DNA of 64,000 nt from Escherichia phage Gostya9: the sequence record NC_047979.1; one strand, given 5' to 3'. Below the pieces are notes generated by a model. The model had not been told where the DNA came from, searched no databases, and was given only the letters and a program-made list of their open reading frames with translations. Below are positions 36,095-39,502 of this stretch, piece by piece. Within the stretch, counting starts at the first letter, position 1. Each line of letters begins with the position of its first letter. The position numbers and the translations under genes are program-made.

Positions 36095-36320
36095 TTTTAC
36101 TGATCCTAATATGGTAGGTATTGATACTAATGTGTCAACTTATCAGACTAAAACTACTGAACCAGAAACATTTATACTAAAAACAGACAAAGAAGGTAAT
36201 GTTACTTTCTGGGATCCTGAAGGTTTTGTAGAGCTTTGTACTAATACAGATAATGAGCAGTTAAAATTACTACTAACTATTTATAATCTTGGTATTATAG
36301 AAGGTTGTAGAAGAGAATAA
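36057..36320 (+). CDS. Hypothetical small protein
   Basis: ORF overlapping the dut 3' end (alternative start); last plus-strand ORF before the convergent terminator. Confidence 0.3.
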   Translation: MGKADLEVQEVNNFTDPNMVGIDTNVSTYQTKTTEPETFILKTDKEGNVTFWDPEGFVELCTNTDNEQLKLLLTIYNLGIIEGCRRE

Positions 36321-36323
36321 TAG

Positions 36324-36358
36324 AAAACCCCAGTGGACAAAATCCACTGGGGTTTTAT
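36324..36358. terminator. Bidirectional terminator where the early (plus) and late (minus) blocks converge
   Basis: 14-bp perfect stem aaaaccccagtgga / tccactggggtttt with loop caaaa; A-run on one side and T-run on the other. Confidence 0.7.
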
Positions 36359-36377
36359 TGTACTTAGCATCATAAAA

Positions 36378-36575
36378 CTATGCTAAGTTCTCTATATTAA
36401 CAAGTTTATTTACAAAGGCTTTAAGTTCTTCAGCGAAGTTACCGCGACCACCCAAACCGTTACCGATCCAGGAACCAATTAAACCACCGATCGCACCACC
36501 GATACCAGCCGCACCAGCTTCACCGCCGAAACCGTCGCCACCGAGATTAGTAGGTAAAAGAGTCGTGTCAGACAT
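36378..36575 (-). CDS. Small glycine-rich protein (about 65 aa)
   Basis: ATG at 36575 with a ggag RBS 8 nt upstream: MSDTTLLPTNLGGDGFGGEAGAAGIGGAIGGLIGSWIGNGLGGRGNFAEELKAFVNKLVNIENLA. The track ORF extends upstream to 36698 without an RBS. Confidence 0.45.
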   Translation of the reverse strand: MSDTTLLPTNLGGDGFGGEAGAAGIGGAIGGLIGSWIGNGLGGRGNFAEELKAFVNKLVNIENLA

Positions 36576-36796
36576 AGGAAAATCTCCATATATGGATTTG
36601 TTAAGCGGATGTAACCAACTGGTTACGCTGGTAAGTATACTCGTTAACATATTATTTACCATGATATGCGTGTAAATAAATTGTAAATAGTTTGGCATTG
36701 GTACTCTTATAATGCAATGGACGTCACGACTTGAACAAAATGAGGAAGCTATGTTTAAACGCGGTGCGGTCGCAGGTAAGGTGAGAAAGTAACAAC

Positions 36797-36820
36797 TAAA
36801 AAAGGAGCCAAACGGCTCCT
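36797..36820 (-). terminator. Rho-independent terminator after the tail-fibre gene
   Basis: On the minus strand: aaggagcc-gttt-ggctcctt followed by ttttttag. Confidence 0.6.
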
Positions 36821-36832
36821 TAATTATTGTGG

Positions 36833-39502
36833 TTATGGCAGATCGTTGTTAACCACATTGCCCTTCAACGCAGCTATCTCCGCTTTCAAACTATCAATTT
36901 CTGCTTTGAGCGCTTGAGTGGCACCCATCAAGTCCATAATAATAGGGTTAGTATCAATTGAAGGTCTGTCTCGGGTCTTCTGTGAAACAATTTTCTTCTC
37001 GACTTCACGACGAATAAATTTATGTTCAATGCGTTGTTCTTTGATTTGTTCTGTAATACCAGTCTCGGGGTCGGTATGATCTACAGTAACCTCTACAGGT
37101 ACATCCTCATATATATCCTTATAAACATCCTCGTATACATCCTCATAAATCTCTTCATTGTGCTTCACATATTGTGGGGTGACTTTCTCCGATTCTTCTG
37201 CAATAATACCAAATCTTATTCTTTCTTGTTCATCGTCCTTATAAATAAAAGTGACCATGCGTTGTGCCATGATGCGGTTTAAAGCATCAATAGGATTACC
37301 GTCATTGATCTCCTTTTTATATGCTAAGCCCGATGTTCCTTGCAGTGCAAGGGTTCCGGCAGCACTCGGAAGTCTAATCCAATGCTCAGGCGAACCTGCT
37401 ACGGTATATGTTTGAAATCCATAGCTCCCTACAGTTTCGCTAAACCCCACACGGTTTCGAATAACTCCATTTGCTGCTAAGTTACAAACATAAGACGCTG
37501 CACCATTGGATTTAAACGTTGCAGCGTCGGTTCCTGCGTCCCCGCCACCCGCTGTAATTCGCCCGGTAATATTGGTAGAGAACGCAATTGCAATCCCAGT
37601 ACCCGCACCCCCAATGGCTAACGGAGTAGAATGATACGAGCCATCCTCATTGTAGTAGTAGAATGCGTAGCCCCCGCTGATAGCAAGCCCTGATCGCCAT
37701 CTTACAGTAGATGGACTGGAAGGTCCGGTATAAGCTGTGTAAGCCGAACCCGGTCCCGTCGCTCTAATTAATACGCTGTCTTGACTATAACCCCCAGTTG
37801 TCCTGAGCTGACCAACTTCCCCAAATGAACTAGTCTTGTGAGCTGGTAGCGTGACTGTTTTAGCTGAAGCGCTGTAGTTAAAGACAACATTAGTGTTACC
37901 AGTATCGTTCTCCTGGAGTCGTATGTTACCGCCATCCATAACCATAACATAGCCAGTTACATCATCTGGGGCGCCAACTTCTTCAAATTTAATTGCTGGG
38001 TTAACACTCTTGATTAAAAGAGGATTACCAGCGTTCGCCCCAAATTCTGCATTAAGGTTAAACTTCTGCTTTTTGGTAAAAGTATTTTCAGCATCAAGTT
38101 TAGCTAGGCTGGAGGGGTCCAGTGAATCCGCATACCCTTTCGCGCGGTTAGCTTCCTCTGTTGCTAGGGTGGCTTTCTGCCCTGCGGTTGCAGCGCTGCC
38201 TGCGGCTGCTGTAGCTTGTTCCACCGCTTCGGTTGCACTAGCACCAGCTTGAGCTGCAGAAGCTGCGGCAGCGTCTTTTAGCGGGGTTATTGTATTAATT
38301 GCTTCCGTCTTAGCGGTGTTGACCGCAGCAACACCCGATGTTTTAACTGTATTAACTTCTTCGACTGCGTCGGCTTTAGCTATTGCGACTTCAGTCAACG
38401 CGGAGTCTTTAATTGCTTGAGTATCTGTTTTTAACTGAGTAACGTCAGCTTTAAGCTGGGTAACTGTAGTTACAGCAGCACTAGCTGTGCTAGCAGATCC
38501 CGCCGCGTCAGCTTGTGCTTGGCTAGCAGCGTCTTCACTAGCTTTTGCGTTAGTTTCTGAAGTTTTTGCAGCAGTTTCTGAGTTTTTTGCTGATTCAGCA
38601 TCAGCAGCAGCTTGTGTAGCGAATATTTCTGCCTCATCCCTAAATCCTTTAGAGTCAGAAGCAGCACTAGCACTATTAGCAGCATTAATCTCAGAAGTTT
38701 TAGCCGCAGAAGCAGATGCAGCAGCATTAGTTTCTGAGATGTTTGCTGCGGAGGCCGCGGCAGCTGCAGTAGTTTCGCTAGCGTTTGCATTAGTTTCTGA
38801 AGTTTTAGCTGCCAGTTCACTAGCCTTTGCATTGGTTTCTGAAGTTTTAGCTGCGGTTTCACTATTAGCAGCCGCAGTAGCAGAAGAAGCAGACTGAGTT
38901 GCAGATTGCTGAGAAGATGCTGCAGAGATTTCCGCTTCATTTTCAGAGTCCTTAGCATTTAGCTCTGACTGCTTAGCATTAGTTTCTGATGTTTTAGCTG
39001 CTGAAGCAGAAGCAGCCGCAGCAGTTTTACTACTATTAGCGTTGGTCTCAGAAGTTCTAGCTGCGGTTTCACTAGCTTTTGCGTTAGTTTCTGAAGTTTT
39101 AGCTGCGGTTTCACTAGCTTTTGCGTTAGTTTCTGAAGTTTTAGCTGCGATTTCACTAGCTTTTGCATTAGTTTCTGAAGTTTTAGCAGCGGTTTTACTA
39201 TTGGCAGAAGCAGTAGCAGAAGAAGCAGACTGAGCTGCGGATTGCTGAGAAGATGCCGCAGAAATTTCTGCGGCATCTTCCGAATCTTTAGCATTTAGCT
39301 CTGACTGTTTTGCATTAATTTCAGATTGCTTAGCTGCTGCAGCAGATGCTCTAGAAGACCCTATTGCAGAGGTTAGCTCTCCTGCAGTAATAGAGCTAAT
39401 TGTGTTTCCCAGAACTACGGTATACTTAGGGTATTTACTTGCAGTTATACTATTCTGGTCCATAGTGACCATTTGTTGTAGAATTATTTTAGTTATAGCC
39501 AT
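36833..39502 (-). CDS. Tail fibre protein with repeat-rich shaft and C-terminal intramolecular-chaperone-like domain
   Basis: N-terminal third made of 14-aa repeats (AAKTSETNAKASE-like); beta-rich Gly/Ser/Thr middle; C-terminal about 150 aa resembles the self-cleaving chaperone domain of phage fibres; final coiled coil ALKAEIDSLKAEIAALK. Confidence 0.75.
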   Translation of the reverse strand: MAITKIILQQMVTMDQNSITASKYPKYTVVLGNTISSITAGELTSAIGSSRASAAAAKQSEINAKQSELNAKDSEDAAEISAASSQQSAAQSASSATASANSKTAAKTSETNAKASEIAAKTSETNAKASETAAKTSETNAKASETAARTSETNANSSKTAAAASASAAKTSETNAKQSELNAKDSENEAEISAASSQQSATQSASSATAAANSETAAKTSETNAKASELAAKTSETNANASETTAAAAASAANISETNAAASASAAKTSEINAANSASAASDSKGFRDEAEIFATQAAADAESAKNSETAAKTSETNAKASEDAASQAQADAAGSASTASAAVTTVTQLKADVTQLKTDTQAIKDSALTEVAIAKADAVEEVNTVKTSGVAAVNTAKTEAINTITPLKDAAAASAAQAGASATEAVEQATAAAGSAATAGQKATLATEEANRAKGYADSLDPSSLAKLDAENTFTKKQKFNLNAEFGANAGNPLLIKSVNPAIKFEEVGAPDDVTGYVMVMDGGNIRLQENDTGNTNVVFNYSASAKTVTLPAHKTSSFGEVGQLRTTGGYSQDSVLIRATGPGSAYTAYTGPSSPSTVRWRSGLAISGGYAFYYYNEDGSYHSTPLAIGGAGTGIAIAFSTNITGRITAGGGDAGTDAATFKSNGAASYVCNLAANGVIRNRVGFSETVGSYGFQTYTVAGSPEHWIRLPSAAGTLALQGTSGLAYKKEINDGNPIDALNRIMAQRMVTFIYKDDEQERIRFGIIAEESEKVTPQYVKHNEEIYEDVYEDVYKDIYEDVPVEVTVDHTDPETGITEQIKEQRIEHKFIRREVEKKIVSQKTRDRPSIDTNPIIMDLMGATQALKAEIDSLKAEIAALKGNVVNNDLP
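39059..39184 (-). repeat. Three tandem 42-nt repeats inside the tail-fibre gene
   Basis: Plus-strand unit agctgcggtttcactagcttttgcgttagtttctgaagtttt repeated 3 times with 1-3 substitutions; a larger degenerate duplication spans about 38470-39350. Confidence 0.85.

Follow-up and report, generated by a model that had tools for sequence, protein, structure and literature searches.

A 65-codon open reading frame in the T5-like phage Gostya9 is most likely the recombination scar of a cross-family tail-fibre swap

Exchange of lateral or L-shaped tail fibres has been described for T5-like, T1-like and Queuovirinae phages in the BASEL analysis (PMC8594841), where the N-terminus of the fibre is conserved and the distal part is swapped, and lateral-tail-fibre loci are hot spots of allelic exchange in both of the phage groups concerned here (PMC8594841). 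The fibre locus of Escherichia phage Gostya9 resembles these cases in that identity falls at the fibre locus and recovers downstream, but the exchange would here have crossed families, from Queuovirinae to Demerecviridae. It would also differ from the known exchanges in its right junction, which appears to be illegitimate and to have left an in-frame open reading frame (ORF) with a foreign head and an old fibre tail. The Gostya9 case adds a further instance to a known class of events. The start codon, Shine-Dalgarno sequence (SD) and upstream region of the ORF are those of the gp21 family of phage CAjan, whereas the cassette partners of that family are missing. With transmembrane glycine zippers (GxxxGxxxG) the ORF has in common a (GxxxG)4 register, which falls on the helix predicted for residues 19-38, but its hydropathy and Pfam score are sub-threshold, and the likeness is one of motif, not of family. 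Like phage morons, the ORF has a promoter-like site, two flanking terminators and a late structural gene upstream, but the unit would be a truncated fragment made by a swap and not an intact accessory gene.

The window, that is the whole stretch of DNA analysed here, comprises 64,000 nucleotides of Gostya9 (NC_047979.1), and all positions refer to it unless another segment is named. A sequence-only reading had singled out a small glycine-rich product encoded at the end of the late block. Translation of 36575..36378 on the minus strand matched the 65-aa product that it had quoted exactly (MSDTTLLPTNLGGDGFGGEAGAAGIGGAIGGLIGSWIGNGLGGRGNFAEELKAFVNKLVNIENLA), and its glycine repeats were borne out: 17 glycines fall within residues 12-45, G26-G30-G34-G38-G42 form an unbroken glycine zipper, and a small-xxx-small chain spans residues 18 to 42. 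A ribosome-binding site, GGAG (36587..36584), lies 8 nt 5' of the ATG. The features of the locus, with the assignments of origin as read from the alignments described below, are as follows.

38557..39502, minus strand: resident T5-like proximal part of the fibre gene (identity to MET_P1_100_107)
36833..38556, minus strand: putatively imported distal part of the L-shaped tail fibre, ~aa 316-889, with Peptidase_S74 at aa 729-780 (Seuratvirus identity; Pfam)
36576..36832, minus strand: putatively imported Seuratvirus intergenic region of 257 nt (95% identical to SLUR25 and Skure)
36378..36575, minus strand: chimeric 65-aa ORF, Gostya9 gp075 (translation; 100% identity to 'hypothetical protein HOT33_gp075')
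36432..36575, minus strand: codons 1-48, 5' end of a Queuovirinae gp21-family gene with the glycine-zipper segment (phrog_9288; SLUR25/Skure homology)
36378..36431, minus strand: codons 49-65 and TAG, 3' end of the resident T5-like L-shaped tail-fibre allele (MET_P1_100_107 match)
36324..36356, both strands: resident terminator acting in both directions, which also serves the convergent dUTPase/DUF7369 block (hairpin scan)

The neighbours are the L-shaped tail fibre with its Peptidase_S74 domain (889 aa), an LtfC-like collar protein, and a convergent block of dUTPase, flap endonuclease and DUF7369 genes. Terminator-like hairpins were found at 36821..36802 (minus strand, 3' of the fibre gene) and at 36324..36356 (both strands). 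The placement given earlier, as the last late gene between a fibre terminator and a bidirectional one, therefore holds in that the ORF runs in the direction of the late fibre gene and is bracketed by terminators, but the supposed fibre terminator is part of the apparently imported DNA.

Many chance ORFs of similar size occur in the window, and the coding status of this one rests on homology, namely the phrog_9288 match and the conserved MSD start, and not on its length. The start at the MSD ATG was as described: it is conserved across the gp21 family, which comprises more than 169 clusters (90% identity), all of 225-237 aa, all starting with MSD and all strongly conserved at the N-terminus. 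An upstream ATG at 36698, which would give a 106-aa version and which the sequence-only reading had named as a possible true start, was rejected, as the family starts uniformly at MSD, the preceding frame is broken in the T5-like phage HK6, and the preceding sequence is different in CAjan. The 65-codon glycine-rich gene is real, and the observation is confirmed.

The two parts of the ORF have different relatives. Residues 1-49 matched positions 1-46 of the 234 positions of phrog_9288 (hmmscan, E=5.3e-19), and homology to the Seuratvirus phages SLUR25 and Skure reaches 36431. Residues 1-48 are ~96% identical to the gp21-family N-terminus and differ from Seuratvirus by an 18-nt in-frame deletion in a GGW repeat, plus M4T and W41L. 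The family N-terminus (MSDMTLLPT..GFGGEAGAAG.GGA.GGLIGSW.GNG) is present in the ORF, as are all the residues that are invariant in the family alignment (L6, P8, G17, G30, S35, N39 and G40). Codons 49-65, in turn, correspond to the end of the S74 chaperone tail of a T5-like fibre: positions 36432..36300 match the 3' end of the fibre gene and the terminator of Salmonella phage MET_P1_100_107 at 94% over 134 nt (compared segment L004 3001-3134). The lateral tail fibre of that phage ends in EVEELKVLVNKLINTDNLA (short form EELKVLVNKLINTDNLA) before its stop codon; the ORF ends in AEELKAFVNKLVNIENLA, the tail of which, EELKAFVNKLVNIENLA, corresponds to the short form with both frame and TAG shared. 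GC content is 54.9% in codons 1-48 and 27.8% in codons 49-65 plus TAG, against 39.6% in the whole window.

Seuratvirus-like sequence stops at 36431 and T5-like sequence begins at 36432, with a TG dinucleotide as the overlap. A megablast search with 36300-36850 returned HK6 as the single full-length T5-like match (89%), while many Seuratvirus phages matched the 5' part of the ORF and the region upstream. A tblastn search of the phage collection with the 65-aa peptide returned nothing, an effect of the low-complexity filter. The junction is shared by HK6 only, and the Gostya9/HK6 junction 25-mer had no exact match in IMG/VR or in the JGI metagenomes. Judged by these alignments, the ORF is a chimera of a 48-codon head from a gene of another phage family and the old tail of the fibre gene.

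The same mosaic extends through the fibre gene. Fractional identity in sliding comparisons with the two relatives changed along the minus strand as follows.

39502 to ~38503: MET_P1_100_107 0.83-0.99 (one 100-nt bin 0.55); SLUR25 at most 0.49
~38502 to 36431: MET_P1_100_107 0.19-0.56; SLUR25 0.82-1.00
below 36431: MET_P1_100_107 0.95; SLUR25 0.20

By BLAST, the Seuratvirus (Queuovirinae) block runs from 38556 to 36431, is ~95% identical to SLUR25 and Skure, and covers the distal two-thirds of the fibre, the terminator, the intergenic region and codons 1-48; its fibre part, 36833..38556, is 95-96% identical to SLUR25, SLUR63 and Skure. Since T5-like homology continues down to 38471, the left crossover is placed in a zone of shared Ala/Ser-rich repeats (~38471-38556). 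The proximal part of the fibre gene is itself repetitive, with many near-repeats of a AAKTSETNAKASE-like unit at 38560-39300 (minus strand) that give rise to long spurious ORFs on both strands, and it is in this region that the left junction falls. The intergenic region holds the donor's fibre terminator (36821..36802), a promoter-like TTTACA-16-TAATAT (36676..36649), a palindrome, GTAACCAGTTGGTTAC (36626..36611), and the SD. CAjan carries a different fibre allele and yet shares window positions 36688..36448, and only these, which indicates that the intergenic region and the gp21 part are native to Queuovirinae. Together with the uniform 225-237 aa of the parent, this pattern points to transfer from Queuovirinae to T5-like phages. 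In phages lacking the insert, the gap between the fibre stop and the convergent gene measures ~58 nt and holds nothing but the bidirectional terminator; here it measures 512 nt. That terminator is conserved, and annotated as a terminator, in T5-like phages including T5 and BF23; originally it closed the fibre gene. Sequence comparison establishes the mosaic, its two junctions, the identity of the parent gene and, for the 3' part, the direction of transfer. No account of the Gostya9 scar was found in the literature covered, which did not include the Gostya9 genome paper (Arch Virol 2019).

The ORF is most likely the recombination scar of a cross-family tail-fibre swap. A T5-like (Demerecviridae) ancestor of Gostya9 and HK6 would have exchanged the receptor-binding two-thirds of its L-shaped fibre gene for a module of ~2.1 kb from a Seuratvirus-like (Queuovirinae) phage. 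The left crossover would have been homologous, within the Ala/Ser-rich repeats common to both fibre genes, and the right one illegitimate, at the TG microhomology at 36431/36432, falling, on the donor side, after codon 48 of the next gene (the head of a conserved gp21-gp24 cassette) and, on the resident side, 17 codons short of the end of the fibre gene. The join would be in frame by chance, with the result that expression of a 65-aa product now depends on the regulatory region and ribosome-binding site of the donor; this product would consist of the donor's N-terminus and the C-terminus of the old fibre and close at the old fibre stop and terminator. We infer that the peptide serves no dedicated purpose in the T5-like phage and survives there because it is short, arose recently and does no harm. 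Any peptide produced would form a small helix-loop-helix, with the putative membrane anchor of the parent as its first helix. Against a mere scar speak the 48 donor codons, which are intact in both Gostya9 and HK6, and the regulatory region, SD and start codon, which are fully kept; in addition, N-terminal fragments of the same gene recur in several lineages and could be useful rather than frequent by-products.

The value of the case lies mainly in annotation and method, as a neat small ORF with ribosome-binding site, motif and terminators would here be the by-product of a cross-family swap. It also provides a base-pair-resolved candidate for homology-facilitated illegitimate recombination that moves a receptor-binding module from Queuovirinae to T5-like phages, and it flags the 5' end of gp21-family genes as a recurrent right-hand boundary of fibre swaps.

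The parent is best represented by CAjan gp21 (phrog_9288; VOG6360/6476), a protein of 235 aa whose gene directly follows that of the lateral tail fibre. When 1.84 billion representatives were searched with a profile, the family grew to 128 clusters (50% identity), mostly of 200-290 aa. Neither the ORF nor CAjan gp21 had a usable sequence match in Pfam, NCBIfam, PADLOC (0 families) or PDB, ten distant family members scanned against Pfam gave no domain above threshold, and a match to NCBIfam PRK04081 (16.5 bits against a cutoff of 194) was set aside as compositional. The paper on phage 9g gives no virion proteomics for the gp21 family. AlphaFold2 (AF2) modelled a 235-aa member with low confidence at residues 1-65, followed by one long helix at 65-221 (pTM 0.26). 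The ORF lacks residues ~55-235 of the parent and with them this long helix, a CCC(E)TN motif and a Pro-rich, Cys-containing end (PTPPTPPTGCC). What it retains is the Gly/Ala-rich segment, which is the hydrophobic maximum in most gp21 members (Kyte-Doolittle (KD) 1.1-1.7) and is replaced in distant members by a plainer hydrophobic helix (WLWIIVVFALLF in P0244, GLLGGIGGLILGGLL in P0199); taken together, these two features suggest that the segment serves gp21 as a membrane anchor.

In Seuratvirus, Nonagvirus, Hanrivervirus (Drexlerviridae), Sashavirus and Yersinia phage PY100, gp21 heads a conserved four-gene cassette, gp21-gp24, which was located in five of the compared segments (L003 4091-6055, which is CAjan; L006 4339-6426; L014 3815-5639; L012 3848-5742; L013 3779-5528). 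The partners gp22-gp24 correspond to VOG6120, VOG6119 and VOG5767, and a tblastn search of the 64-kb window with CAjan gp22-25 returned nothing better than E=0.46. There was a weak MazG/PRA-PH-like match for gp22, gp21-gp23 were without a match in the curated libraries, and the homologues seen were all annotated as hypothetical. Being widespread, uncharacterised and repeatedly lost, the parent cassette is a worthier target than the fragment.

Several other broken or fused copies of gp21 were found; like the defects of the HK6 copy and the missing cassette partners, they favour the view that such fragments arise as by-products. A second, independent and more divergent remnant occupies the same locus in the T5-like phages S147, vaffelhjerte, SE24, MET_P1-88 and H8 (L010 and L011 4294-4850; L015, L016 and L017 3294-3950), where it is partly annotated as one or two 'hypothetical proteins'; all of them have an in-frame TAG as codon 110, are truncated near the CC(E)T motif and contain a poly-A tract that ranges from 6 to 14 A. 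In T1-like metagenome contigs, a 92-aa ORF links gp21(1-74) with the 18 C-terminal residues of gp24 (ELAKRIAVKVIAVLGTME), which, judged by its sequence, is an internal deletion of the cassette. It is present in 22 such contigs (e.g. L007-L009 5001-5279) and also sits between two terminators after an S74 fibre gene. In phage KurtStettler, bas22_0024 (L005 2624-4156) joins a piece of fibre with an S74 chaperone domain, in the same frame, to gp21 from about residue 20 onwards; here too a crossover fell within the 5' region of gp21. In Skure, frameshifts interrupt the fibre gene as well as the gp21 homologue (L002 2464-4018 and 4157-4987); they may be genuine or stem from sequencing errors.

The HK6 copy shares with Gostya9 both the junction and the loss of 18 nt in the GGW repeat. 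In addition, a 1-nt deletion ends its ORF after 54 aa, a residue that is invariant in the family is changed (S35F), and the zipper carries G27D. Between the two phages, codons 1-48 differ by 11 synonymous and 6 nonsynonymous substitutions (dS 0.38, dN 0.058, omega 0.15; binomial p=0.0008 against equal rates, or roughly p=0.015 if only transitions are allowed), with differences at 11 of 48 third positions compared with 6 of 96 first and second positions. This is not the pattern of free decay. The dS of the adjacent fibre module is 0.077, so that the value for the ORF patch is five times as high. Along the locus, HK6 diverges by 12-14% between 36656 and 36457 compared with 1-7% in most flanking bins, and the differences within the ORF are mostly at third positions. 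The excess in dS and the local divergence point to a second small imported patch, the synonymous bias of which would have been acquired in a donor with the full gene. The simplest reconciliation is that this patch came from a donor not yet sampled, in which selection acts on the complete gene; the best match to the divergent HK6 allele in the phage collection was 87%, and a closer donor was not among its members. The alternative, purifying selection on the fragment itself, is not separable from a second patch on these data, and a functional mini-gene was accordingly judged unlikely.

Such a captured mini-gene, in which the glycine-zipper helix would be an autonomous membrane-inserting module that acts in the inner membrane (in exclusion, membrane perturbation or lysis timing, for example) and is expressed from the imported regulatory region, comes close to what the sequence-only reading had in mind, and it is unlikely. 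It draws on the low omega and the third-position bias between Gostya9 and HK6, on the retained promoter-like site, conserved 5'-UTR palindrome and SD, on the place of the segment as the hydrophobic maximum of most family members with a plainer helix in P0244 and P0199, and on the recurrence of an N-terminal fragment in the 22 T1-like contigs. An AF2 model of the 65-aa peptide adds predicted helices at residues 19-38 (pLDDT ~68) and 47-64, at a mean pLDDT of 63. However, the dS excess over the fibre module and the local divergence of HK6 favour the second patch, HK6 has replaced both an invariant serine and a glycine inside the zipper, and the C-terminal tail is not conserved. Only two phages carry the ORF, and the three T1-like copies that were compared are identical and so say nothing about selection. 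The peak hydropathy of the ORF, at 1.27 (Kyte-Doolittle, 19-residue mean), is also below the usual transmembrane threshold of 1.6. Rather doubtful, too, is the broader proposal that the gp21 head is an autonomous small membrane protein that T5-like phages captured from Queuovirinae with the fibre tip and that is now under purifying selection, with the independent N-terminal-only versions of T1-like and S147-like phages as further instances.

The specific functions that had been suggested for the peptide fared less well than the description of the gene. The idea of a membrane-active peptide retains some footing, as a minority reading, in the segment that is the most hydrophobic of the parent family, in its clearer helix in distant members and in the mainly synonymous codon changes, but the sub-threshold peak hydropathy counts against it; a membrane-depolarising role found no support there or in the match to Pfam Gly-zipper_Omp (PF13488), which scored 13.1 bits (E=0.097) against a gathering threshold of 25 bits. 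A role as a lysis accessory was likewise unsupported: NCBIfam, PADLOC and PDB returned nothing, and the gp21 part is a 48-codon fragment. The ORF is flanked by the tail fibre and the dUTPase/flap-endonuclease block and not by lysis genes. Nor did NCBIfam or PDB give any match in favour of a structural glycine-rich tail component.

That the ORF is not translated at all, and is neutral DNA or serves as the right-hand arm of homology when fibres are again exchanged with Queuovirinae, would agree with its chimeric origin, with the KurtStettler crossovers inside the gp21 5' region and with the end of the divergent HK6 patch within the remnant. It is nevertheless very unlikely, given that the expressed parent gene has exactly the same start codon, SD and upstream region, all of them undamaged here, and that the three-periodic substitutions imply selection at the protein level somewhere in the history of the ORF. 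A chaperone or T-even gp38-like glycine-rich adhesin for the fibre gene upstream, which the position directly 3' of that gene, the position of the parent after S74-type fibres in Seuratvirus and Drexlerviridae and the annotation of the KurtStettler fusion as 'putative lateral tail fiber chaperone' might suggest, is hardly credible, since the fibre is already equipped with an intramolecular chaperone, Peptidase_S74, the KurtStettler annotation stems from the S74 portion of the fusion, the cassette is not beside a fibre gene in Sashavirus and PY100 (which argues against a fibre-chaperone role), and the 48 of ~235 residues present here have no similarity to a solved or curated chaperone or adhesin in Pfam, NCBIfam or PDB.

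Further observations concern annotation and the upstream region. The GenBank record of HK6 leaves its 885-aa L-shaped tail-fibre gene (L001 1361-4018) unannotated. The folding energy of the 5' UTR as RNA was no better than that of shuffled sequences (z = -0.81), and Rfam gave only sub-threshold matches within 36250-36900, all on the terminator hairpin. Between the promoter-like site and the SD, the palindrome at 36611-36626 keeps its dyad symmetry across families while its sequence differs (GTAACC-N4-GGTTAC, GTAACA-TAAA-TGTTGC, GTGGC-AGGGA-GCCAC and GTAATA-TGCG-TGTTAC, at the sites in the window, L012, L014, L007 and L010), and it may act as an operator or as a stem in the 5' UTR of gp21.
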